From: Candidatus Saccharimonadales bacterium
GTDB taxonomy: Bacteria > Patescibacteriota > UBA1384 > 2-12-FULL-50-11
DNA: 64,000 nucleotides
Assembly: GCA_035480235.1 (NCBI GenBank)
Contig: DATIHX010000008.1
Span: forward strand, 26,845-90,844
Reading direction: 5' to 3'
A program made the position numbers and the translations under genes. Positions 1 to 11,574 of this stretch are shown here, one piece after another; position 1 is the first letter of the stretch, and the number at the start of each line of letters is the position of its first letter. The notes beneath the pieces were generated by a model. It searched no databases. It was not told where the DNA came from and saw only the letters and a program-made list of their open reading frames with translations.

Positions 1-51
1 TCTCAACAGTTGTTAATGAACGTGGGGAATCATACCATATTATACCCGAAA

Positions 52-199
52 AGTCAAGGTCCTAACGGGTAATTTTGTAGTCTTCCAGCTTGTCTATTTC
101 TTCTTTAGTTTTGGCCTGGTAACTACATTGGGAACACTTAAAGCCCTCTTCATTCCTAATCATTGAACCTCGGCATTTGGGGCACTTTTTATACAGCAT
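52..199 (-). CDS. Small zinc-ribbon protein of about 48 aa (MLYKKCPKCRGS...CSQCSYQ).
   Basis: Unlisted short ORF with a CxxC-x16-CxxC motif. It lies inside the putative element and has no clear RBS. Confidence 0.3.
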
Positions 200-263
200 T
201 AACTCTTAATATCTCGGTAACAGGTAGGAAGTCAAATCTTAGAGTTATTAGAGATTTGCTACT

Positions 264-291
264 TGACAAACTATACATATATTTATAATAC
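264..291 (+). promoter_or_regulatory. Sigma70-like promoter (TTGACA 264-269, then TATAAT/TAATAC at 284-291) in an AT-rich block driving 325..2204.
   Basis: Hexamers are seen directly. A GGAGGG RBS precedes the ATG at 325. Confidence 0.4.
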
Positions 292-324
292 TATAATTAT
301 ATTTATAGTAACGATTGGAGGGAT

Positions 325-654
325 ATGCCAACGAAAGAAGCTACAATTCAGATCGCTAATCAAAGTCCGGCCTCGGCTAGTGAGGCTGCCTTATCTCTGA
401 ATCAGCCCCTTCTCGATCACTCCGGCTTCCAATCGATCGACACGGCGTTGCGCTCGATCTTCCCGACTACTCAGGAAGAAACGAAAGTCCAAAAAGCCCG
501 GGCTATCCTCCAAGAAGTTGCCGCTAATCTTTCCGACCAAGAGGTGGAAATCTTTATTACCGAACTCCAGTGCCTGATCGACTCCTGGTTCGACGTCTAT
601 GAGAAAGGCGTTTTTAACGGTTTGACGCTTAAAGAATTAATGAAAGGAGGGTAA
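325..654 (+). CDS. Hypothetical small acidic protein, translationally coupled to the serine recombinase. It could be an accessory or directionality factor.
   Basis: Good RBS. Its stop lies 2 nt before the recombinase ATG. Confidence 0.45.
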   Translation: MPTKEATIQIANQSPASASEAALSLNQPLLDHSGFQSIDTALRSIFPTTQEETKVQKARAILQEVAANLSDQEVEIFITELQCLIDSWFDVYEKGVFNGLTLKELMKGG

Positions 655-656
655 CC

Positions 657-2204
657 ATGGAAAATAAGATAGTTGGCTTAACAGCCAAGCGGATAGAGAA
701 AGCGGTCATTTATTTACGGGTCTCGACCGAAGAGCAGGTCGAGAACTACTCGCTCGATACCCAAAAGGAGATTTGTAAGAAAGAAGCGGACAAACGCCAC
801 TACGAGGTGGCGGAGATATTTCGGGAAGAAGGCCGCTCTGCTAAGACCGCCGATCGGCCGGAGCTGATCCGAATGCTGGAATACTGCCGGAAGCACAAGA
901 AGCAGATCGACACGGTAATAGTTTATCGGCTCGATCGGATCTCCCGCCAAACCTCGGATTATTTAGCCATCCGCAAAAAACTGACCGAGTGCGAGATTAC
1001 TTTAATCTCCGCTTCCGAACCGACCGGTAACAGCCCGACCGAGAAGTTTGTCGAAACGATGCTAGCTGGATTTGCCCAGATGGATAACGATATCCGAAGC
1101 GAACGGTCGCGTAACGGCATGAAAGCTCGGTTTTTAACCGGCCTCACCAACGGCGCGGTTCCTTTGGGCTACATCACCCTCAACGGCTACGCGACGAAAG
1201 ACCCCGAAAGCTGGGATTTGATGAAAGCGGCTTGGGAACGGATGGCCACCGGTACGACAACGCTCCAAGAGATGGCCAATATTCTCACTAAACAGGGCGT
1301 CCAAGAAAAAGTTCGGGGCCGATTGAAGAAGCTCCGCTCCCAGACCATGTCCCGGATCTTCAAGAATAAGTTTTACACTGGCCTCATCGCCTCCAAAACC
1401 TACAACCAGGAGGTTAAAGGCCAACACCCGCCGATGATTACCGAAGAGCTGTTCTACCAAGTCCAGGCGGTCATCGAAGGACGGAACAATAGCAAAGCAG
1501 TCTTACTGGCCAAAAAGAATCCCAATAACCCGAACTTTCCGTTGCGGAGGATTATTAAGTGCAGTATTTGTGGCCATTCTTTCACCGGTGGCTACAGCAA
1601 GGGCAAGAAGGCCCGCTTTGGCTATTATTTCTGTCCACAACGCTGCTACAAGGGCCGCGGGTCCTCCGTGCCGATTGATGACATGGATCAGGAGATGATC
1701 GCCTTGCTGGGGAAGATAACGCTCAAAGAGAAAACCGCTGATTTATTAACGGCTTATATCCGCCGGACCTACCAGGAACGGGCAGCAACGTTAATTACTC
1801 GCCGAGCCGATGCCGACGAAGAGCTCCAGAGCCTCTATAAGATCCGCCAGACGTTGATTGAAAAGAATCTCTCCGGTATTTACTCGGATGATGTCTTTAA
1901 AGAGCAGAATAAGCGGATCGAAGAAAAGATCACGACGATCCAGATCACGAAAAACGATGAAGTCTTGGAGAAGTATAACCTTGAGAGGATTTGCGAATCC
2001 ATTACAGCCAAATTCGCAAACCTCGCTCAAACCTACACAGAATCGTCCCTAGAACAGAAGCGGGTCATGTTGTGTTCGATTTTCCCGGTCGGAGTGCCCT
2101 GGGGCTATCCGGGCTATTCGAACACCCAAATTCATGACGTTTACACCTGTTGCTTGGAACTAAACAGCAATGATGTCTCTTTTGGTGGACCCTACCGGGC
2201 TTGA
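657..2204 (+). CDS. Large serine recombinase with resolvase/invertase N-terminal catalytic domain, recombinase domain and C-terminal Cys-rich zinc ribbon.
   Basis: N-terminus AVIYLRVSTEEQ...YSLDTQ...RLDRISR with catalytic Ser, and central CSICGH...C motifs, are typical of phage or ICE large serine integrases. Confidence 0.85.
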   Translation: MENKIVGLTAKRIEKAVIYLRVSTEEQVENYSLDTQKEICKKEADKRHYEVAEIFREEGRSAKTADRPELIRMLEYCRKHKKQIDTVIVYRLDRISRQTSDYLAIRKKLTECEITLISASEPTGNSPTEKFVETMLAGFAQMDNDIRSERSRNGMKARFLTGLTNGAVPLGYITLNGYATKDPESWDLMKAAWERMATGTTTLQEMANILTKQGVQEKVRGRLKKLRSQTMSRIFKNKFYTGLIASKTYNQEVKGQHPPMITEELFYQVQAVIEGRNNSKAVLLAKKNPNNPNFPLRRIIKCSICGHSFTGGYSKGKKARFGYYFCPQRCYKGRGSSVPIDDMDQEMIALLGKITLKEKTADLLTAYIRRTYQERAATLITRRADADEELQSLYKIRQTLIEKNLSGIYSDDVFKEQNKRIEEKITTIQITKNDEVLEKYNLERICESITAKFANLAQTYTESSLEQKRVMLCSIFPVGVPWGYPGYSNTQIHDVYTCCLELNSNDVSFGGPYRA

Positions 2205-2258
2205 ACCGGTCACCTCCTGACTGCCAGCCAGGCGCTCTACCAAATGAGCTAAGGGCCC
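2183..2258 (-). tRNA. tRNA-Ala (anticodon GGC).
   Basis: Cloverleaf read by hand on the minus strand: acceptor GGGCCCT with a G3:U70 pair, anticodon loop CTGGCAG, T-loop GGTTCAAGCC, and an encoded CCA. Confidence 0.85.
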
Positions 2259-2264
2259 GAGAAA

Positions 2265-2936
2265 CTACGAACCAATAATTTGTGAGATTATCTGCAACTC
2301 ATTATAAATGTTTGCCGAAAAGTAGTCTATACGGCAAACACCTTTGTAGGTTAGTTTGAGCGTGACCCTGCCGTGACTTCGGGCGTCAATTTGTGCATCG
2401 TAAAACTTTTCAAGGGGTATGCCAGTTATTTCTGACCAAAATTTCTCTAGTTCTTTGATGTTTTGATCGGCACGGCATTGAAGGGTGCAGCGAAATTTCG
2501 TTTCGTCGATTGGATAGCATTTTCTCAACAACTTTAGAAACAGTTTAATTATTTTTGGGTCGGAATTGCCAAACATTAAGCTACTTGGTTGCTTTCCGCC
2601 CTCAGTAAGATTGAGAATAGATAGGGCGATGAGCGCGGTTTGACGATCAGAACTAAGTTTATCGCTAAGATTGGCGTACTTATTGCTGATGCCCTGCAAA
2701 TACGCCGCTCGTTTCTTCCGAATTACTTCAAGGGCTTTCAGGCGATTAATGGCCAGTTTTTGGATATTTAGTTTATTTATTCTTGAGCGCTGATTATCAG
2801 CTAACCGAATATCGCTACACCAACCCGCGGCAGTACTTTTTGATACCGCTATATCTAGCTTCGAATTGATTTCAGCATACGTGAGCCCTTGCTTGCGCAA
2901 AGCTCGAAACTTAAATTTTACAGCCTCTGGCTCCAT
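2265..2936 (-). CDS. Hypothetical basic protein flanking tRNA-Ala.
   Basis: Intact 223-aa ORF with no recognisable motif. Confidence 0.45.
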   Translation of the reverse strand: MEPEAVKFKFRALRKQGLTYAEINSKLDIAVSKSTAAGWCSDIRLADNQRSRINKLNIQKLAINRLKALEVIRKKRAAYLQGISNKYANLSDKLSSDRQTALIALSILNLTEGGKQPSSLMFGNSDPKIIKLFLKLLRKCYPIDETKFRCTLQCRADQNIKELEKFWSEITGIPLEKFYDAQIDARSHGRVTLKLTYKGVCRIDYFSANIYNELQIISQIIGS

Positions 2937-2979: not shown

Positions 2980-4647
2980 TCACCTAACCGCAGAAGCGGG
3001 AGTATTAGCAACAATCGGAGTCGAAGTTGGAGCGACAGATTCGGCTGGTTCATCAGCTTTCAAAATTAAGCTCTCGCCGGTCATTTCGGGCGACTTTTGA
3101 AGGTTAAATAGCGTGAGAATGGTTGGCGCGACATCAGACAGCGAACCGCCTTGACGTAACAGCCAGCCCTTCGCCACATCACCGGCAATAATAAACGGTA
3201 CAGGACTATTGGTGTGTTCAGTGTCTGGCTCGCCGGTTTTGGGGTTAACCATCTGCTCGACGTTGCCGTGGTCAGCTGTGACGATAAAAATACCGCCCAA
3301 CTTATTAACTGCGTCAAAAATTTGCTGCAAGCCCGCGTCCACTGCTTCACAAGCCTGGATGGCCGCTCGCAAATTGCCGGTGTGGCCGACCATATCGGGG
3401 TTGGCGTAATTGAGGACAATGAAATCATACTTGCCGAGGTTTTCCAAAACCGTTTTAGTGATCGCCGCGCTACTCATCGCCGGTACTTGGTCGTAACTGG
3501 GCACTTTCGGCGACGGAACGACGATCCGGTCTTCGCCGGTAAAAGCTTTTTCTTGGCCGCCGTTAAAAAAATAGGTGACGTGAGCGTATTTTTCGCTTTC
3601 GGCCACGTGAAGTTGCTTTAAACCAGCGGCTGAGAGCACACCGGAGAGCGGTAATTTAACATCTTTGGGTTTGAAGGCTACTTCCATCGGTAAACCCTCC
3701 TGGTAGTAAGTAAACCCGGCAAAATAAACATTTTGGAGGATTTTTTTGCGGTTAAAGCCGTCAAAATCCGGCTTCACAATGGCTTGGGTAATTTCCCGGG
3801 CCCGGTCGCCGCGGAAGTTAAAGAAAATTACCGAATCACCATCTTGAATCGGCACGAAGCTGTTATTCTCGCCCTGAATAACAGTTGGCGGAACGAACTC
3901 GTCGGAGAAACCGTCGCGGTAAGCAGCGGCCACCGCTGCCTCGGCGGTTTTGGCGCTGTTACCGACGCCTTCGGTCATCGCCCGGTAAACTTTTTCAATC
4001 CGCTCCCAGCGATGGTCGCGGTCCATGGCGTAGTAACGCCCTTCCACCGTACAAATCCGGCCAAAGCCGAGCTTTTTCAGGTTGGTAGCGACACGGGCTA
4101 AGTACTCTTCGGCGGCAAATGGCGCCGTATCGCGGCCGTCGGTGAAAGCGTGAATGCAGACGTTGGTAAATTCAACACTTTTGGCCATATCTAGCAACGC
4201 AAAGAGGTGGTCGATGTGGCTATGAATACCACCGTCGCTGCAAAGACCCATAATATGAACGGCCTTGCCGGCCGCTTTGGCATTAGTAAAGGCTTTGATT
4301 AGGACCGGATTTTTTAGAAAACTGCCGTCTTTGATAGCGGTAGTAATAGACGGAAATGCCTCTTGTACAACTTGGCCGCTACCGATATTTAAGTGGCCGA
4401 CCTCCGAGTTGCCGCGGTCGTGGTCTGGCAAGCCAACCGCCTCGCCGGAGGCAGCCAAAGTCGTGTATGGGAAGGTTTTAGTGGCCATATTCATAAACGG
4501 TGTGTGGGCCAAGGCCACGGCGTTACCGCCCCATTCCGGCGCTACCCCCCAGCCGTCCATCACGCAAAGGACAATTGGTCTCGGCCCAGCCGGAGAGCCA
4601 AGCTTACCAGCTTCGCTGGTCGCTATTGGTTTCGGCGGTTTAGGCAT
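2980..4647 (-). CDS. gpmI: 2,3-bisphosphoglycerate-independent phosphoglycerate mutase.
   Basis: iPGM signatures MGLCSDGGIHSH and ADHGN. It overlaps eno by 8 nt. Confidence 0.93.
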   Translation of the reverse strand: MPKPPKPIATSEAGKLGSPAGPRPIVLCVMDGWGVAPEWGGNAVALAHTPFMNMATKTFPYTTLAASGEAVGLPDHDRGNSEVGHLNIGSGQVVQEAFPSITTAIKDGSFLKNPVLIKAFTNAKAAGKAVHIMGLCSDGGIHSHIDHLFALLDMAKSVEFTNVCIHAFTDGRDTAPFAAEEYLARVATNLKKLGFGRICTVEGRYYAMDRDHRWERIEKVYRAMTEGVGNSAKTAEAAVAAAYRDGFSDEFVPPTVIQGENNSFVPIQDGDSVIFFNFRGDRAREITQAIVKPDFDGFNRKKILQNVYFAGFTYYQEGLPMEVAFKPKDVKLPLSGVLSAAGLKQLHVAESEKYAHVTYFFNGGQEKAFTGEDRIVVPSPKVPSYDQVPAMSSAAITKTVLENLGKYDFIVLNYANPDMVGHTGNLRAAIQACEAVDAGLQQIFDAVNKLGGIFIVTADHGNVEQMVNPKTGEPDTEHTNSPVPFIIAGDVAKGWLLRQGGSLSDVAPTILTLFNLQKSPEMTGESLILKADEPAESVAPTSTPIVANTPASAVR

Positions 4648-5854
4648 TCTTATTGGCGGTGAGTTGATCCTCGATAGTTAATAACCGGCGGTATTTGGTC
4701 ATTCTTTCCGGGTGAGCGTCGTTGGGCGCGCCGGTTTTAATAAACTGGGCGCCGATGCCAACGGCGAAATCGGCGATGTAGTCGTCTAATGTTTCGCCGG
4801 AGCGGTGCGAGACGATAATTACGTAACCAGCTTGGCGAGCCTGTTCAACAACTTGCAGCGTTTCAGTGAGGGTGCCGATTTGGTTAAGCTTCACTAAAAT
4901 CGCGTTAGCGGCATTCAACTCGATGCCTTTTTTCAGCCGCTCAGTGTTAGTGACGAATAAATCATCGCCAATCAGCAACAACTTTTTGTTACTAGCGTTC
5001 TGCTTGCTCATTTCGGAACGAAACTCTGCCCAGTTTTGCCAGTCTTCTTCACCGAACGGATCCTCCAGTGAGAGGATGGGGTAATCGTTAATTAAGCCGA
5101 TGTAGCGCTTGGTGGAGACTTCAAAGGTGGCCGGTAAGCTCGAGGCCGCCACGTCAAGAGCGAGCGAAATTTCATCCCAAGGCTTATAACCAGACTGTTT
5201 GATGGCTTGGAGAAGTAAATCCAGGGCGATCTCGTTAGTGTCCAGGTTAGGGGCGTAACCGCCTTCGTCACCGATCGGCACAAATGCCCCGTCGCCACGC
5301 AATATTTGGCCGAGCGTACTAAAAACCAGCTTACCGGCCGAAAGTTGGTTGTGATAACCAGCTACCTTGTCGGGCACCACCATAAACTCTTGCATATCGA
5401 GATTATTATCGGCGTGTTTGCCGCCGTTAATCAGGTTGAACATCGGAATAGGGACGGCAAAGCCCTTGCGGTGGTCTAGTTCACCGATGTACTGATAGAG
5501 CTCTATACCCTTTTCAGCGGCTGCGGCTCGCGATACCGCCAACGAAACGCCGAGCATCGTATTAGCGCCGAGTCGGTTTTTATCGTTGGTACCATCGAGT
5601 TTGATCATCGCCGCGTCAATCTCGGCCTGATCAAATGGGTCTTTGCCCTGCAAGAGCGGTAGAAATTGGTTCTTGATTATTTCCACCGACTTGGCAGGGT
5701 CTACAACTTTCGCCTCAAAAGTACCAACCGACTTGCCGGCCGGGATGGCGGCGGCGCCGGCTTTGCCGCCATCGGTTTCCACTGCCACTTGCAGCGTCGC
5801 ATCGCCGCGCGAGTCGTGGATCACCTCTCCAACAATGTGTTTAATTTTTGCCAT
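4640..5854 (-). CDS. eno: Enolase.
   Basis: MAKIKHIVGEVIHDSRG...SHRSGETEDDYIADFAV...KTGAPNDAHPERMTKY are classic enolase blocks. Confidence 0.95.
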   Translation of the reverse strand: MAKIKHIVGEVIHDSRGDATLQVAVETDGGKAGAAAIPAGKSVGTFEAKVVDPAKSVEIIKNQFLPLLQGKDPFDQAEIDAAMIKLDGTNDKNRLGANTMLGVSLAVSRAAAAEKGIELYQYIGELDHRKGFAVPIPMFNLINGGKHADNNLDMQEFMVVPDKVAGYHNQLSAGKLVFSTLGQILRGDGAFVPIGDEGGYAPNLDTNEIALDLLLQAIKQSGYKPWDEISLALDVAASSLPATFEVSTKRYIGLINDYPILSLEDPFGEEDWQNWAEFRSEMSKQNASNKKLLLIGDDLFVTNTERLKKGIELNAANAILVKLNQIGTLTETLQVVEQARQAGYVIIVSHRSGETLDDYIADFAVGIGAQFIKTGAPNDAHPERMTKYRRLLTIEDQLTANKNA

Positions 5855-5997
5855 AGCGTTAATTAATTCCCTCGCTTATTGTACTCAGCTGAGCTCTTCA
5901 CATTTTCCGATTCGAAATGCTCGCGCCGCTCGCCTCGAACCCGAAAAGGTTCGACATCGTGGATCACCTCTCCAACAATGTGTTTAATTTTTGTCAT
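5814..5997. repeat. 41-nt direct repeat with 1 mismatch: copy A at 5814-5854 is the eno start and copy B at 5957-5997 is the uORF start.
   Basis: tcgtggatcacctctccaacaatgtgtttaatttttg[c/t]cat occurs twice, 143 nt apart. Confidence 0.8.
5863..5997 (-). CDS. 44-aa uORF whose first 14 codons (MTKIKHIVGEVIHD) duplicate the enolase N-terminus. Its start overlaps the pgi/pmi stop (TGATG).
   Basis: Read directly from the sequence. The GAGGG at its 3' end serves as the eno RBS. Confidence 0.3.
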   Translation of the reverse strand: MTKIKHIVGEVIHDVEPFRVRGERREHFESENVKSSAEYNKRGN

Positions 5998-7016
5998 CAG
6001 ATTTTTTTGAGCGCTTCCTTTAGTGTAGCAATTTCTTCGACTGGCGTGGGGTCCACTCCGTAAACGCCGGCCAAATAATAGCTTAACAGGTCGCCGAAGT
6101 GGAGCAGTAACAATTGTTCACCAAGTTGACTACTGGATTGAACCGACAGTGGCACCACCGGAATCTGCTGGTTTTCAAAACTTTGGCTAACAACTTTCGC
6201 CCGCGCCACATTGCGGCTAAAGCTGTAGCTAGATTCTAGTAGTAAGACGGTTAATTTTTCGGGGATAGCGAATTCAAGACCGGCAATCAGGTTATGGCAG
6301 AGCTCCGGCAGGGCGGCCGGAAAAGCAGTGGTTTTACTGTTCTCGTTCAGTTGGGTGGCAAAACGGCGAGCCACCGCCCCTAGCGGCGCGGCGGCAGCGA
6401 TAATCGGCAACTCATTATTAAGGCTCATCGCCAGTGCCTCGGCTTTCGGCTCAAAGGTCCGTTTACTGATGCTGGAGCGAATTTCTTCGATGGCTCGGAA
6501 CAAATCGCCCTCCTTAAATGGGAAGTGGCCGGTTTTGGCCAGTGCCACCAGGAGCGAACCGTACAACTCGCCGATCGCCGCCCGGGGCGGCAGGTCGGGT
6601 TGCAATTTTACGACCGGAAGGCCGTGCATTTCCGCCAACCCCTCCATCTTACCGCCGCTGGTAATCACTAGCGCCGGTATTTTTCGCTCGGCTGCTTGTT
6701 TAACAGCGCTTAATGTTTCTTCGGTTTCGCCCGAGTAGCTAATGGCGATAAACAGAGTCTCGTCGTCGGCCCAGTGCGGCAAATTGTAATCGGCCCAAGT
6801 AAAAATAGGTGTCGGCGCAGCGGCAAATAATTCTTGGGCCAATGCGCCAGCGATGCCTGAGCCGCCCATACCGGCTATTAAAACTTGGTCAAATTCGTTC
6901 GGCAATGCCAAATCTTTTATCCAATGGGTCGTCCAGGTTTTTTCCAATTGATTCGGTAAATCCTGGATTTTTTCCAGCATTTTCCCGTCGTCGAGAACGA
7001 CTATCTGTTCAGACAT
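5997..7016 (-). CDS. Bifunctional phosphoglucose/phosphomannose isomerase family (SIS domains).
   Basis: Two SIS-like nucleotide-sugar phosphate binding blocks (GMGGSGIAG and ISYSGETEET), and glycolytic neighbours. Confidence 0.7.
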   Translation of the reverse strand: MSEQIVVLDDGKMLEKIQDLPNQLEKTWTTHWIKDLALPNEFDQVLIAGMGGSGIAGALAQELFAAAPTPIFTWADYNLPHWADDETLFIAISYSGETEETLSAVKQAAERKIPALVITSGGKMEGLAEMHGLPVVKLQPDLPPRAAIGELYGSLLVALAKTGHFPFKEGDLFRAIEEIRSSISKRTFEPKAEALAMSLNNELPIIAAAAPLGAVARRFATQLNENSKTTAFPAALPELCHNLIAGLEFAIPEKLTVLLLESSYSFSRNVARAKVVSQSFENQQIPVVPLSVQSSSQLGEQLLLLHFGDLLSYYLAGVYGVDPTPVEEIATLKEALKKI

Positions 7017-7221
7017 AAATTAACACTAACAATTTGTGGACCGGATGGGAATTGGACCCACTACTTCCTCAATGCGAATGAGGCGTTCTACCGATGAACT
7101 ACCGGCCCAGAATCATTTTGCCAGTAGTTCTTTCTCGCCTATTGGCTCGAAATGAACTACTGGCCCTTGGTTAGTTCCTACTGTAATTCTACCCTAAATA
7201 TTGATAGAATTAACTAGTTCT

Positions 7222-7305
7222 GCCGGAGTGGTGGAACGGTTTTACACGCACGACTCAAAATCGTGTGAGGGCAACCTCATGTGGGTTCGAATCCCACCTC
7301 CGGCA
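7222..7305 (+). tRNA. tRNA-Leu (anticodon CAA).
   Basis: Acceptor GCCGGAG/CTCCGGC, anticodon stem CACGA/TCGTG with loop CTCAAAA, long variable arm, T-loop GGTTCGAATCC. Confidence 0.85.
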
Positions 7306-7309
7306 CAGC

Positions 7310-8038
7310 ATGAAACAAGTGACCTTTGACGAAAACGACATCAAAAAAATAATTCGGGTGGATACAACGGCCCAAAAGTTTTGGCGGCGGTTTTGGTGGA
7401 CGATTCGCCAGGTCATCTACTTACTGGCGCTTTTTGTTTTCTTCTTTTACGCCTTAAACTACGCTGCCTACTTTAAGCGTTTCCAGTACGCGGTTGAAGC
7501 CAAACCGATTCAAAAAATCGCCATTGCTCCACCGCCCGCCCCAGCCGCCCCGCTACCCGATTACGCCCCAGAAGTGGATATCCCGAAAATTAACGTCAGT
7601 GCACCGTTACTAGTTAACGTCTCGGTGGCCGATATGTTGAGCCAGCTAACCAGCGGCGTGGTTCAATACCTGGATACGGCCCTGCCCGGCCAAACCGGCA
7701 ATATGGTGTTAGTGGGCCATTCGTCAAATTTCCCCTGGATTCACAGCCAATACAACACGGTTTTCGCCCTGGTCGATAAGCTAAGTGCCGGTGACCAAAT
7801 CATTGTGCCGTTTCACGCCCAAAAATATGTTTATGAAGTAACTAGCAGTAAAATTGTTAAACCCACCGACCTGGCCGTTTTAAATAAAACCGACACCCCA
7901 ACTCTGACGCTCTTAACCTGTTACCCAGTCGGCACCACCCGTAGCCGCTATATTGTGCTGGCCAAACTAGTGAGCGATAACGTTTCTGGCAGCCAAACAA
8001 GTGAACCGGCTACCGCTACGGTCCCGTCGCCGCGCTAG
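7310..8038 (+). CDS. Sortase family transpeptidase with an N-terminal membrane anchor.
   Basis: Catalytic His in LVGHSS and TLxTC Cys motif (TLTLLTCYP) plus a downstream Arg. The annotated upstream start overlaps the tRNA, so I place the start at ATG 7310. Confidence 0.8.
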   Translation: MKQVTFDENDIKKIIRVDTTAQKFWRRFWWTIRQVIYLLALFVFFFYALNYAAYFKRFQYAVEAKPIQKIAIAPPPAPAAPLPDYAPEVDIPKINVSAPLLVNVSVADMLSQLTSGVVQYLDTALPGQTGNMVLVGHSSNFPWIHSQYNTVFALVDKLSAGDQIIVPFHAQKYVYEVTSSKIVKPTDLAVLNKTDTPTLTLLTCYPVGTTRSRYIVLAKLVSDNVSGSQTSEPATATVPSPR

Positions 8039-8741
8039 GCATTAAAAGGTCGATTTCTTTAGCCGTGGGGCCGTCAAATATTGTTAGCTGCCAGTTGGCA
8101 GTATCGATATTGAAATTCAGCCGATCGCTAGAGCCGGCCTGGTAAATAGTAAAATCTTGGTTATTTTCAGCAAAAAAGAGGTGGAGTTCGTTGCCTTGTT
8201 GGTATAGATAGCTGGTGTCAAGCCGGTGGGCCTGAACAAGTGGGCTGGCGAAGCGGCTGACTAAACTGCCGAAATCGATCAGTTGGCCGTTTTGAAAAAC
8301 CAATCCAATATCAAACGGGCTATTCGGCCGGTAAACAGCCGCTGGAGCGTCGGTGATTTGCGGTTCTTGAGCGATTAAGATCGCTTTTTTCACGACCCCG
8401 GCTTGGCCGGGGGAGAGTTGGAAAATCCGGTCATACGGGTAGAAACCGGCTCTGGTGATGGCTAGGTCGTAACGGCCGCCCGGTAAGCCGTCTAAGGTAA
8501 TCGGTGTGGCATTACCAACCACTTTGCCGTTTAAGGCTACCGTCACGTCGCTTAAGGAATTATTGACGGCGATCACCGCGGTTGTTTCAAAGCTGCCAGT
8601 GGCCTTATCGAACCTCAAGCCGGTCGCCCAAACGATGGTAGTTAGGGTGATGACCAAGAAAAGGGCGGCGCCGACAAGCGAAATAATTAAACTAATTCGC
8701 CGTTGGCGTTTGGCGTAGCTCATTAATTTAGTATAGCGCAC
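8016..8741 (-). CDS. Membrane-anchored PEGA-domain protein.
   Basis: N-terminal TM helix. The PEGA-like block is NATPITLDGLPGGRYDLAITRAGFYPY. Confidence 0.55.
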   Translation of the reverse strand: MRYTKLMSYAKRQRRISLIISLVGAALFLVITLTTIVWATGLRFDKATGSFETTAVIAVNNSLSDVTVALNGKVVGNATPITLDGLPGGRYDLAITRAGFYPYDRIFQLSPGQAGVVKKAILIAQEPQITDAPAAVYRPNSPFDIGLVFQNGQLIDFGSLVSRFASPLVQAHRLDTSYLYQQGNELHLFFAENNQDFTIYQAGSSDRLNFNIDTANWQLTIFDGPTAKEIDLLMPSAATGP

Positions 8742-8788
8742 TTACTGGCCGTTGTTTCCAGGGAAAGGTTTGGTACAATGCCTCCAAG

Positions 8789-9796
8789 ATGTTACGTCGA
8801 GTGGGAGTGGATTTAGGCACTAATAATATCCTTATTTACGTACCCGGGCAGGGGATTGTGATCGACGAACCGGCCGTGGCGGCACTTGATGCCTACGACA
8901 ATAAAGTGGTGGCTTTCGGCGAAGAAGCCCGCAAAATGCTCGGTAAAACGCCGGACAGTATTATTGCAGCCCGACCTTTGCGCGACGGTGTGATCGCCAG
9001 CTTCAAAATTACCGAAGCGATGCTGCGCTATTTTATTAATAAACTCTCCGGCCGGGTTCGGTTGTTTCGGCCGGATATTATGGTAGCCGTGCCGGTCGGG
9101 GCCACTTCTACCGAGCGCCGGGCCGTCATTGACGCCTGCGTCGCGGCTGGCGCCAAAAACGCCTACATCATTAAAGAACCGGTCGCGGCGGCGCTTGGCG
9201 CGGCTGTCCCGATTACTACCGCCGAAGGCCACTTAATTATTGATATCGGCGCCGGCACCACCGAAGTCGCCGTGATTTCTTTGGGCGATGTAGTGGCCGC
9301 TACCTCAGTCCGGGTCGGCGGCAACAAAATGGATGTAGCGATCGCCAACTTCATCCGCAAAAAATATTCGCTGATTATCGGCGAGCCGACGGCCGAAAAC
9401 CTCAAAATCAAAATCGGGACGGCGATGCCGCTGAAAAAAGAACTGACGATGGAACTCTCCGGCGCCAACTCGGTGACCGGATTGCCGGAATCGGTCTTGG
9501 TTAACTCAACTGATGTAATGACCGCCGTTCAGGAAGAACTGAAAGAAATTATCGGCGCCGTCAAATCGGTCTTGCAAAAAACGCCGCCGGAATTGGCCGC
9601 CGACATTATGGACAAAGGTATGATTATGACCGGTGGGGGATCGATGCTGAAAAACCTCGACGCCTTATTTACGAAAGTTACCGGCGTGCCCTGCCAGCTG
9701 GCCGAAGAACCGCGGCTCTGTGTGGTTAAAGGTACTGGTATCGCCGTGGAACACCTGGACGAATACGTGAGGTCGGTCTTTTGGACGAAGCGTTAA
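8789..9796 (+). CDS. mreB: Rod-shape determining actin homolog MreB/Mbl.
   Basis: VGVDLGTNN...ARPLRDGVIA...IDIGAGTTEVAV blocks. Confidence 0.9.
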   Translation: MLRRVGVDLGTNNILIYVPGQGIVIDEPAVAALDAYDNKVVAFGEEARKMLGKTPDSIIAARPLRDGVIASFKITEAMLRYFINKLSGRVRLFRPDIMVAVPVGATSTERRAVIDACVAAGAKNAYIIKEPVAAALGAAVPITTAEGHLIIDIGAGTTEVAVISLGDVVAATSVRVGGNKMDVAIANFIRKKYSLIIGEPTAENLKIKIGTAMPLKKELTMELSGANSVTGLPESVLVNSTDVMTAVQEELKEIIGAVKSVLQKTPPELAADIMDKGMIMTGGGSMLKNLDALFTKVTGVPCQLAEEPRLCVVKGTGIAVEHLDEYVRSVFWTKR

Positions 9797-10335
9797 CTTA
9801 CAGTCTTTAGAACTTTTTCAGCTACTTGTTTTGGGCTTAATCCGTCAGTTTCAATAACTATCTCCCCCCTGTAGTTTACCGAGGGTTTATCTTTAAGGTA
9901 CTTATCGAGATCGGTACGATTACTAATCCTATAGTTTTCGTTTCTTCTGGAGACGCGCTTTGCAAGCGTCTCGTATGGCGCAGCGAGCGTAACAACTAAA
10001 AACCTATAGTTAGGGAACTTCTCAACCGCACGACGGGCAATATTAATAGTTTTTGGATCTGGCGATGGACGAACATAGATTATGTTCTGGTTTTGAGCGA
10101 GTAGAAATTTTATTACAGGTAGAGTAACTTGATCCATCAACTTTGGGATTCGATGTTCTTCAACAATGTCAAAAATAATATTTTTAAGCTCATGAAACCA
10201 GAATAGTTTCCAACTTAGCGTCTTTTGAATAATTCTGGCGACTGTGATTTTTCCCACGCCAGGTTCACCACGTAAATAAAGAAAGGTTCTTCTTTTATCA
10301 ATCTTCATCTGACCAAACGTAACAAAACTCCCCAA
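9793..10335 (-). CDS. P-loop NTPase, nucleoside/nucleotide-kinase-like.
   Basis: Walker A GEPGVGKIT near the N-terminus and small size. Confidence 0.5.
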   Translation of the reverse strand: MGSFVTFGQMKIDKRRTFLYLRGEPGVGKITVARIIQKTLSWKLFWFHELKNIIFDIVEEHRIPKLMDQVTLPVIKFLLAQNQNIIYVRPSPDPKTINIARRAVEKFPNYRFLVVTLAAPYETLAKRVSRRNENYRISNRTDLDKYLKDKPSVNYRGEIVIETDGLSPKQVAEKVLKTVS

Positions 10336-10467
10336 AAAAAGAAATTTTAGGTATCAACTTCCGGGCTGACGCTCGGCTAAGTTGGATGCTTCAATTCAGC
10401 TCGCTAACACTCGCTAATTGAAGCTATACTACGTATATGTTAGTCTCTCTTCTAGAAAGATGACTTT

Positions 10468-11574
10468 ATGATAAACAGTGGCCTCCTTATTGGCATTGAC
10501 GCTTCACGGGCGGTAAAAGCAAACCCCACTGGCACGGAGTATTATTCGCGCGAAATTATTCGGGCCATTCTGGAGCTGGACCGTCGGAACCAATACCGGC
10601 TTTATGCTCACAAAATGCCAGACAGCAGTTTTGGAGAATATTCTAACGTCGAGTGGAAGATTATCCCGCCTGGCCGGCTTTGGTCGCAATTGAAACTAGC
10701 GGCTGAACTGAAAAAAAGTTCGCCAGACGTTCTATTCGTGCCGGCGCACGTTGTGCCGCTGCTCTCCAACGTCCCAACCGTCGTCACCATTCACGGCTTA
10801 GAATTCTTGTACGCTCCCCAAAATTACGGCCACCGCGAGCGAGCTTATTTAAAATTTTCTACGGCTAGCTCAATCAGTAAAGCGCGCCAAGTGATCGCCC
10901 CTAGCCATTGGACCAAACAAGACATCTTGAAGCATTATCATTGCCCGGCTGGGAAAATTACCGTTATCGCCGAGGCCTACAACAAAGAGCTCTACAACAC
11001 GAACGGCGAAGCGGGGGAGCGGCCGATCAAAGAACCGTACATATTCTCGCTCTCCCGGCTCGAAGAACGGAAAAACCAAGCTTTGCTGGTGGAGGCTTTT
11101 GCGCTGCTGCGTAAAGAAAAAGGCGACGTCAAGCTGGTTCTGGGCGGCAAGCCGGGTTACGGTTTTGAGAAAATCCGCGCCAAGATTGATGCGCTGCCGG
11201 CTACTATTCGTGATTCGGTGTTATTACCGGGCTATTTGAGCGAAACCGACGCCGCTAATTACCTCCGCCACGCCGCCGTTTTTGCCTACCCGTCCAAATA
11301 CGAAGGTTTCGGCATCCCGATGCTTGAAGCCTTTGGCTCGGGTACGCCGGTCGTGGCCAGTAACGCCTCGTGCTTACCGGAAGTGGCCGGTGAGGCAGCG
11401 GTCTTGCTGCCGCCAGATAACGCCCTCAGTTGGGCCGCCGCCTTTAGCCGAATCTTGCACCAGCCCAAATACGCCGAGGAGCTAAAAGCTAAAGGCCTGA
11501 AACGAGCCAGCGAGTTTTCTTGGGCAAGCGCAGCCGAAGCAACACTAATAGTCATCGAAAATGCTGCAGCGTGA
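10468..11574 (+). CDS. GT-B glycosyltransferase (family 4/1 type).
   Basis: C-terminal EGFGIPMLEAFGSGTPVVAS (EX7E) block. Confidence 0.85.
   Translation: MINSGLLIGIDASRAVKANPTGTEYYSREIIRAILELDRRNQYRLYAHKMPDSSFGEYSNVEWKIIPPGRLWSQLKLAAELKKSSPDVLFVPAHVVPLLSNVPTVVTIHGLEFLYAPQNYGHRERAYLKFSTASSISKARQVIAPSHWTKQDILKHYHCPAGKITVIAEAYNKELYNTNGEAGERPIKEPYIFSLSRLEERKNQALLVEAFALLRKEKGDVKLVLGGKPGYGFEKIRAKIDALPATIRDSVLLPGYLSETDAANYLRHAAVFAYPSKYEGFGIPMLEAFGSGTPVVASNASCLPEVAGEAAVLLPPDNALSWAAAFSRILHQPKYAEELKAKGLKRASEFSWASAAEATLIVIENAAA

Follow-up and report, generated by a model that had tools for sequence, protein, structure and literature searches.

At the left end of a 64,000-nucleotide stretch of Candidatus Saccharimonadales DNA (hereafter the window), the gene of a large serine recombinase (LSR) terminates inside the 3' end of a tRNA-Ala(GGC) gene, a type of target that serine integrases are not known to use (Hudson et al. 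2015). The locus raises the question whether a mobile element has been integrated here, how far it extends and how a serine enzyme came to be joined to a tRNA. Our comparison of related loci indicates that the LSR very probably belongs to an integrated element of ~6.25 kb, that the abutment on tRNA 3' ends is the rule in a whole family of recombinases, and that the attP site likely lies inside the recombinase gene itself. Three features of the window carry this argument:

657 to 2204, plus strand: LSR gene in its integrated, apparently C-terminally swapped form, 515 aa (Pfam, PHROG and AlphaFold2 (AF2) model)
2183 to 2258, minus strand: tRNA-Ala(GGC), host gene and integration target (ARAGORN)
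2160 to 2207, no strand assigned: attR, whose P half-site is formed by the final codons of the LSR gene (...GATGTCTCTTT) (70+ loci aligned at their junctions)

The occupied tRNA-Ala site

The initial annotation of the window had described a 515-aa zinc-ribbon LSR that runs 22 nt into an intact tRNA-Ala, and Pfam and ARAGORN confirm this description. The 3' end of the tRNA gene faces the LSR, the overlap comprises exactly 22 nt (2183-2204), and the tRNA carries G3:U70 plus an encoded CCA. The body of the element had been predicted to the left of the window. The recombinase protein was located on a 227-kb contig of the Candidatus Saccharimonadales metagenome-assembled genome GCA_964636455.1, and the 21.5-kb region with 10 kb on either side of the LSR gene is designated L001; subtraction of 9344 converts an L001 position into a window position. 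Leftward from the window, L001 harbors genes for a 270-aa protein of no recognised kind, a PRK-family kinase and an FkbO/Hyg5-like protein, further left those for a 180-aa protein of no recognised kind, an AAA_33 kinase and an XRE-type helix-turn-helix (HTH) protein, and beyond the latter the core genes for a 60-aa membrane ORF, DUF378, LeuRS, NusB and RNase III. These core genes start 6.6 kb left of the tRNA-Ala, and their order corresponds to that of the empty-site relative L092.

The nearest relatives were found via LeuRS homologues. L092, whose LeuRS is 80% identical, exhibits the order PGI, enolase, iPGM, tRNA-Ala(GGC), an 80-nt spacer, the 60-aa ORF, DUF378 and LeuRS; this is an empty site, at which the present genome contains an insertion of ~6.25 kb. 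The block from the XRE gene to the LSR, which separates the core genes from the tRNA, is absent from L092, and the element body is thus found where it had been predicted. L091, with a LeuRS of 75% identity, has 1.7 kb next to this tRNA that lack a recombinase and contain two att-like scars. In L006, the same tRNA site holds a 74% identical recombinase and its 109-aa partner together with a wholly different cargo. Since the site is empty in L092, scarred in L091 and otherwise filled in L006, the tRNA gene belongs to the host, and the DNA block on its left is an insertion. A contig search for empty sites that was based on iPGM retrieved distant phyla only.

A tRNA rule across the recombinase family

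At least 964 homologues of the LSR were detected at E <= 1e-20, mostly ~60% identical over the full length, and those with a named source originate from Saccharibacteria; a metagenome scan contributed a further 80 loci. The 3' end of the recombinase gene lies inside the contig in 76 related copies. In 67 of these 76 copies, the end of an antisense tRNA is no more than 5 nt away from the Gly510 codon, almost always exactly 1 nt before it, which shows that the juxtaposition of LSR and tRNA is not due to chance. Gly510 is nearly invariant, and its GGT/GGC codon corresponds, on the antisense strand, to the discriminator base and CC. The conserved part of the present LSR stops precisely at this codon (2184-2186), and codons 511-515 (GPYRA) are read-through into the antisense strand of the tRNA. 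The variable C-terminal tails of the best 120 database homologues (...IRT..., ...TLTxGLVLGKDAL, DERT) are antisense-tRNA translations as well.

The abutting tRNAs represent 26 anticodons and 12 amino acids. Recombinases that are more than 90% identical can occupy different isoacceptors (Ser-UGA/CGA/GCU/GGA, Tyr-GUA) with a common 3' end, TGGCGGAGAG, which suggests that the terminal 10-25 nt of the tRNA are recognised. We propose that the universal T-loop box is read as a zinc-ribbon motif, which would have allowed the family to spread over at least 26 tRNA species.

These data also bear on two different explanations, namely that the tRNA travels as cargo of the element or that an ORF lacking a stop codon merely happens to read into the tRNA. 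Some mobile elements do carry tRNA genes, and the last five LSR codons are unconserved. However, relatives without the LSR have tRNA-Ala(GGC) at the same place beside iPGM, the distance between tRNA end and Gly510 is constant to 1 nt in those 67 of 76 copies at 26 different tRNAs, and the attL sites described below keep just 6-7 nt of the tRNA end. Both explanations are already contradicted by the comparison, and we regard them as extremely improbable relative to integration at the 3' end of a host tRNA gene.

Attachment sites and strand exchange

Sites are numbered from the plus-strand T that matches the terminal A of the tRNA (+1, window 2183). At the right end, attR comprises the shared core TGGTGG (2183-2188), which is the antisense of CC-A73-CCA, and a B' half-site that consists of the acceptor and T arm of the tRNA and includes the T-loop box CTTGAAC (2200-2206). 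Nine loci contain the motif GCACTTTCnTTCGAACAC at ten sites, oriented like the recombinase gene and upstream of it, and each copy directly follows 6-7 nt that are identical to the 3' end of the tRNA abutting that recombinase. The left end in L001 exhibits a 27-nt match (5275-5301; 93%, E 1e-4) to a scar of L091 amid unrelated DNA, and attL is located at ~5273-5320 (...CAGAAT-TGTGG-CCTTCATGCACTTTCATTCGAACACC...). Between these sites the element measures ~6,254 bp (L001 ~5273-11526), the final 2,182 bp of which lie inside the window (1-2182); complete related elements range from 6.3 to 10.4 kb. An integrated LSR element with these boundaries is very probable. The attL and attR of the same element share positions +1 to +6 or +7 across loci, here only ~4-6 nt, with a T at +2 of attL and a G at +2 of attR (TTGTGG vs. 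TGGTGG). A displaced fragment of the tRNA gene (tDNA) of at least 15 nt is absent from the far end, where attL retains TTGTGG only.

Two other candidates for the left end were rejected. Position 4625/4626 of L001, which coincides with the start of the Logan contig L002 and a palindromic sequence resembling an attP core (TCTCT-TT-AGAGA), is refuted because the empty-site relative L092 also contains the next 270 nt, which comprise a conserved 30-mer and the 60-aa ORF. L002, L004 and L005 end where the assembly graph branches, at sequences that genomes or tRNAs have in common, and these contig ends are not element ends. The sequence TCTCTTGGTGGCC at L001 4728 is a chance match inside the conserved core 60-aa ORF.

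The junction had initially been regarded as a classic att arrangement, for which a direct repeat of the last 20-45 nt of the tRNA end was expected, and the lack of this repeat next to ordinary core genes was to speak against an element. The arrangement is classic for tyrosine integrases and not for serine ones (Hudson et al. 2015). No copy of the tRNA end is present in L001 or the window (last 25 nt with up to 3 mismatches; 10-14-nt fuzzy searches), as predicted for a serine integrase, yet the insertion is real. The proposed rule is thus unsuited to LSRs and would have dismissed the element wrongly.

The antisense T-loop box TTCGAAC occupies positions +18 to +24 in real tRNAs and +23 to +29 in the P' arms. 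The position weight matrix similarity between 62 B' arms and 13 P' arms peaks at a shift of +5 (0.427) and stays at or below 0.30 at all other shifts. This offset of 5 bp matches the geometry of the LI (A118) integrase, whose zinc-ribbon-domain (ZD) motif is located at half-site positions 16-24 in attP and 11-19 in attB (PMC3783163); a ZD motif that lies ~5 bp nearer to the centre in attB than in attP is hence found for the P'/B' side. The T-loop box of the tRNA would serve as the ZD motif of the B' half-site, and the P' arm would carry TTCGAAC 5 bp farther from the core. Half-sites of 25 and 20 bp place the centre near +4 to +6, and the best value of a symmetry scan for the half-site centre was 0.326 at +3.0, compared with a background of ~0.25.

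The tRNA-Ala genes of empty-site relatives end with ...A-CTA or ...A-CGA (ACTA, ACGA) and lack an encoded CCA, and the same lack of CCA is observed for the other two tRNA genes of the window. In conjunction with the difference at +2, this is indicative of a CCA that was donated by the element. The simplest reading of the junctions is a strand exchange within +3 to +6 (window 2185-2188, tRNA positions 74-71), and A73 of the tRNA-Ala was probably supplied by the element as well. An exchange within tRNA positions 71-74 would mean that the element donates the CCA end and that the tRNA stays functional. The junctions prior to integration would have been ...GTCTCTTTTGGTGGCCTTCATGCAC... / ...AATGATGTCTCTTTTGGTGGCCTTCATGCACTTTCATTCGAAC... 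for attP and ...CAGAATTGTGGACCCTACC... / ...TGTAACAATCAGAATTGTGGACCCTACCGGGCTTGAACC... for attB.

A recombinase tail probably exchanged by integration

In the frame of Gly510, the P' regions remain open for 18-62 codons (18-37 at all but one site) before a stop codon, and they encode G-(G/A)-L-D-A-L-S-F-E-H-L-L-x-W-L-D-x-L-R-Q-A-F-E-E.... Where a recombinase is followed by P' and not by a tRNA (L124, L112, L163, L165), the frame is continuous, with an ORF of 550 aa in L124. For the conserved Leu, Trp and Asp codons of the tail, the pairwise differences at codon positions 1, 2 and 3 amount to 158, 20 and 178, respectively, and synonymous changes (CTT TTA/CTC CTG/TTG CTG; AGG/AGA; CAG/CAA; GCT/GCA) reach well past the 25-bp half-site. 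Judged from this substitution pattern, the conservation of the tail acts at the protein level. The present element still contains the detached 28-codon tail, CGLHALSFEHLLGWFDTIERIYRPDEYR followed by a stop codon, in intact form at L001 5274-5360.

It is therefore likely that attP is located inside the recombinase gene and that, as in partitioned integrases, integration splits the integrase ORF. Integration would detach the last ~27 codons, which encode the conserved helix ...ALSFEHLLGWFDTIERIYR (ALSFEHLLxWLD), leave them at attL, beyond the window and at a distance of 6.25 kb, and replace the helix by five antisense-tRNA codons (GPYRA plus stop). Excision would rebuild a 537-aa LSR and a tRNA gene without CCA. 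More speculatively, the tail swap and the co-translated 109-aa partner might report the integrated versus the excised state and thereby bias directionality. A regulatory role of the tail or the partner is a tentative proposal, and it is an equally uncertain possibility that tail swap and obligatory partner together form a built-in sensor of the integration state, which would decide in which direction recombination proceeds, with no classical recombination directionality factor under separate regulation.

A tail ORF was also found in L091, where the region between tRNA-Ala(GGC) and the core 59-aa ORF (7525-9250) harbors a P'-type scar with an intact tail ORF and a P-arm-type scar that resembles the L007 junction. 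The region resembles a remnant of earlier integrations into this site.

The recombinase protein

The LSR matches the Pfam families Resolvase (8e-35), Recombinase PF07508 (1e-10) and Zn_ribbon_recom PF13408 (2e-5, just over the gathering score), and its best PHROG match is an integrase (2e-84). The N-terminal resolvase-type catalytic domain contains the serine nucleophile: YLRVST, with Ser23, can be aligned to the catalytic-serine motif of the TP901-1 integrase, and this serine is invariant in the family alignment. The recombinase domain is followed by a zinc ribbon with a coiled-coil insertion, and four cysteines are invariant (C302, C305, C326, C330). The AF2 model recovers the catalytic domain, the long alpha-E helix, the recombinase domain, the zinc ribbon and a coiled coil at residues 358-432; the zinc-ribbon part consists of beta strands (300-339) and subsequent long helices (358-405 and 411-432), and residues 507-515 are disordered. 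The identity to LSRs of solved structure is low, with domain-level E-values from 1e-5 to 1e-12. Based on its domains, the catalytic serine, the coiled coil, the short overlap and the 5-bp motif shift, all read from sequence and model, the enzyme qualifies as a bona fide large serine recombinase.

The partner protein and the region upstream

Three further features of the window precede the LSR gene:

325 to 654, plus strand: 109-aa acidic helical partner protein, pI 4.5, with residues 36-109 as conserved domain
240 to 312, plus strand: promoter-like AT-rich divergent block with TTGACA at 263-268 and a 10/12 consensus match
62 to 199, minus strand: 45-aa four-cysteine (CxxC...CxxC) zinc-ribbon-like ORF, divergent from the recombinase operon

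The coupled acidic 109-aa ORF had been noticed in the initial annotation and turned out to be a conserved partner of the recombinase: 77 of the 84 loci searched have a homologue of its C-terminal ~72 residues immediately in front of the LSR gene. It had been suggested as a possible directionality or accessory factor, and for the former role it is a candidate. Its TAA stop codon (652-654) is closely followed by the ATG of the LSR at 657, a GGAGG is present within its last codons, and the stop and start codons of the two genes abut or overlap across loci. An exhaustive search retrieved 311 representative clusters of the partner, all of them 62-171 aa long. Neither Pfam, PHROG nor PDB provided a sequence match, and the AF2 model, which exhibits a disordered N-terminus and four helices (pLDDT ~90 for residues 60-105), gave no fold match. 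The partner helix LQCLIDSWFDVYEK (FQxLxDxWLDxFE) can be aligned with the detached tail FEHLLGWFDTIERIY (FEHLLxWLDxL), a weak match (E 0.01, probability 4%); this likeness of the WLD helices could reflect chance or a shared binding surface.

The AT-rich promoter-like block and the tiny zinc-ribbon ORF farther left are likewise present as initially described. The block contains several -10-like hexamers, and its TTGACA and the ribosome-binding site (RBS) are conserved in L006. Repeated ACTATA/TATAGT hexamers occur within 240-312, where the L006 counterpart has TAGATAGT/ACTATCTA palindromes; these repeats look like operators between divergent genes. The 45-aa ORF, possibly a small regulator, has sub-threshold Pfam zinc-ribbon matches only and is conserved solely in the closest related element L006 (67% identity).

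Cargo and class of the element

From left to right the element comprises attL, an XRE regulator, cargo, the small zinc-ribbon ORF, the promoter-like block, the 109-aa partner, the LSR and attR. Its cargo consists of two P-loop kinases, the FkbO/Hyg5-like protein and proteins of no recognised kind. The backbone common to the complete relatives is attL, XRE, cargo, Replic_Relax, partner, recombinase and attR. Phage or ICE (integrative and conjugative element) cargo, which had initially been expected, is not found: PHROG and Pfam scans of the element ORFs detected neither virion, packaging or lysis genes nor genes for relaxase/replication-relaxation, coupling proteins or a type IV secretion system (T4SS). 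No Phage_integrase domain is present among the called genes of the element, whose sole recombinase is of the serine type. A search for a divergent Replic_Relax in the 270-aa ORF of L001 remained without match. Scans of IMG/VR for family members and for the P' motif found none. Among the relatives, Replic_Relax is present in seven of the eight other complete elements and a VirD4/TraG-like gene in L009, and on these grounds the family appears to be of the IME type (integrative and mobilizable element), the present copy being without a relaxase-type feature.

This composition also decides on the alternative that the LSR marks the edge of a large prophage or ICE that extends tens of kb to the left, with a long direct repeat of the tRNA 3' end at its borders. 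Other members of the family do carry VirD4/TraG-like and Replic_Relax genes or more than 10 kb of cargo. However, core genes begin already 6.6 kb left of the tRNA in the order of the empty-site relative, a tRNA-end repeat (25 nt, up to 3 mismatches) is missing from the 21.5 kb and the window, phage and conjugation genes were not found, and no member of the family occurs in IMG/VR. The alternative is refuted for this locus and of negligible probability.

The cargo of two relatives deserves mention. In L006 it includes the core of a diversity-generating retroelement (DGR; bAvd plus reverse transcriptase, 7940-9386), an AAA_5 protein and a trypsin-like protease. L009 (GCA_964518195.1, 1-21563) harbors three recombinase genes of the family in a 21-kb region, and tRNA-Gly(GCC) has two of these next to it in tandem, which shows that elements accrete at one tRNA. 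The L009 cargo comprises a VirD4/TraG-like ATPase, Replic_Relax, Mrr and a restriction-modification system. Tandem arrays are present in L009, L112 and L147, and recombinase-less scars in L091.

Present state of the element

Several observations weigh against the reconstruction proposed here. No recombination, excision junction or empty-site allele was seen for this genome, and both samples that carry it yielded occupied-site contigs only. A stretch of 380 nt between the core 60-aa gene and attL (L001 4893-5272) is not accounted for by the reconstruction; it has a GC content of 0.447 and a 49-aa minus-strand ORF, and the corresponding spacer in the empty-site relative L092 comprises only 80 nt. 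The P arm, which is also coding, lacks a clear mirror of the P' motif, and the symmetry scan fixed no centre. The B arm is unconserved tRNA trailer, and attB therefore looks asymmetric, which is unusual for the LSR class. The T-loop box of the present tRNA, CTTGAAC, matches TTCGAAC at five of seven positions. LSR junctions without a tRNA in L009, L109 and L122 are not followed by a recognisable tail. Finally, the Replic_Relax gene that is found in seven of the eight other complete elements is absent here, and this copy may thus be a reduced or immobilised derivative. The base composition, in contrast, favors an insertion: the GC content of the element is 0.478, compared with a mean of 0.510 ± 0.011 and a minimum of 0.480 for 6-kb windows of the host, and the individual genes of the element are uneven (0.40 to 0.605).

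The absence of Replic_Relax leads to a further explanation, i.e. a dead remnant that was integrated by the LSR and is now fixed in the chromosome, with a domesticated or decaying recombinase. It is also favored by the difference between the attL and attR cores (TTGTGG vs. TGGTGG), by the lack of an empty-site or circular-junction contig from samples with this genome, and by the LSR-less scars that pile up at the same site in L091. On the other hand, the LSR ORF is of full length and has retained the catalytic serine and all of the 120+ family-invariant residues, and at attL the detached tail persists as an uninterrupted frame of 28 codons with every conserved residue. The difference at +2 is expected if that base comes from the host trailer, and no damage is seen in the partner gene, the RBSs or the promoter-like block. 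A dead remnant is rather unlikely in our view.

Neighbouring genes

Between iPGM and tRNA-Ala, the window contains a 223-aa ORF (2265-2936, minus strand; GC 0.42) with an HTH at its N-terminus and a LAGLIDADG-like 'LYLGEGSK' domain at its C-terminus. Its 453 relatives (~50-55% identity) are scattered over Patescibacteria. Because it is missing at this position in the closest relatives L091 and L092, the ORF probably represents a second, independent selfish insertion 5' of the same tRNA. Its use as a synteny marker was dropped, as the gene is sporadic and HTH/LAGLIDADG-like.

On the other side of the element, the LeuRS (L001 1381-4209) contains a NUDIX domain insertion, and some of its relatives (P0241, P0243, P0253; 1117-1124 aa) have an extra alpha/beta-hydrolase insertion. 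Farther right in the window, a 44-aa ORF (5863-5997, minus strand) starts with MTKIKHIVGEVIHD, a copy of the first 14 residues of the enolase (4640-5854), which itself starts with MAKIKHIVGEVIHD; this 5'-end duplication sits between the PGI and enolase genes.

Significance

The locus itself is an ordinary-looking small island, and its interest stems from the family behind it. Genome engineering relies heavily on serine integrases, and protein-coding or intergenic sites are regarded as their natural targets; a family that targets tRNA 3' ends would widen this picture. Its apparent recognition logic, the acceptor end of a tRNA plus the T-loop box, is simple and offers landing sites in every genome. 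The split gene provides a testable idea that links the direction of recombination to the integration state. Mobile elements of Saccharibacteria and the candidate phyla radiation (CPR) are barely characterised, and elements of 6-10 kb such as these seem to be important carriers of gene flux, with a family cargo that includes restriction-modification systems (L009, L007), a DGR (L006), kinases (present element) and T4SS coupling proteins (L009).

Comparison with known systems

The full-text literature searched holds no description of Saccharibacteria or CPR elements of this kind, and reports outside that set are possible. The large LSR survey of Durrant et al. (2022) analysed protein-coding targets and leaves tRNA unmentioned in its main text. 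This very abundant family appears to be undescribed, and it would depart from the rule that serine integrases leave tRNA genes aside; it differs from the described LSRs by its tRNA 3'-end target, the intragenic attP, the obligatory small partner and its Patescibacteria hosts.

The phage LSRs A118/LI, phiC31, Bxb1, TP901-1 and SPbeta exhibit the same domain order, including the zinc ribbon with a coiled-coil insertion, and likewise use short att sites without long identity. In the LI integrase, the same 7-8-nt motif is also located 5 bp further out in attP (PMC3783163). In contrast to these systems, the present family is found at tRNA 3' ends (26 anticodons) instead of intergenic sites or protein-coding genes, unconserved trailer makes up the outer half of attB, and attP lies in the integrase ORF according to our reconstruction. 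A small conserved gene is coupled upstream, and the carriers are non-viral Patescibacteria elements of 6-10 kb.

A different set of similarities is shared with the tRNA islands of tyrosine integrases, namely islands of the Islander type and the integrative and conjugative elements of actinomycetes (AICEs) such as pSAM2. In both cases integration into the 3' end restores the tRNA, the integrase gene adjoins the tRNA, elements and scars accumulate in tandem at one tRNA, and small elements carry a replication/relaxase-type gene, here in the relatives. However, the present enzyme is a serine recombinase, and instead of a 15-50-nt tDNA fragment and a direct repeat, only ~4-6 nt are shared.

The splitting of the integrase gene has its counterpart in archaeal integrases of the SSV1 type, whose attP lies within the int ORF and whose target is a tRNA; integration partitions the gene, and excision restores it. 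The SSV integrases are tyrosine recombinases, and their gene loses a large N-terminal part through the split and becomes inactive. The likeness is thus one of mechanism only, since in the present family ~27 C-terminal residues, located after all recognised domains, would be exchanged. A further parallel is the integration-dependent immunity of mycobacteriophages, which also relies on a tyrosine recombinase: attP is located in the repressor gene, integration alters the C-terminus of the repressor, and the removed tail is a degradation tag. There, as proposed here, a protein differs between the integrated and the free state, but in the Saccharibacteria family the altered protein would be the serine integrase itself.

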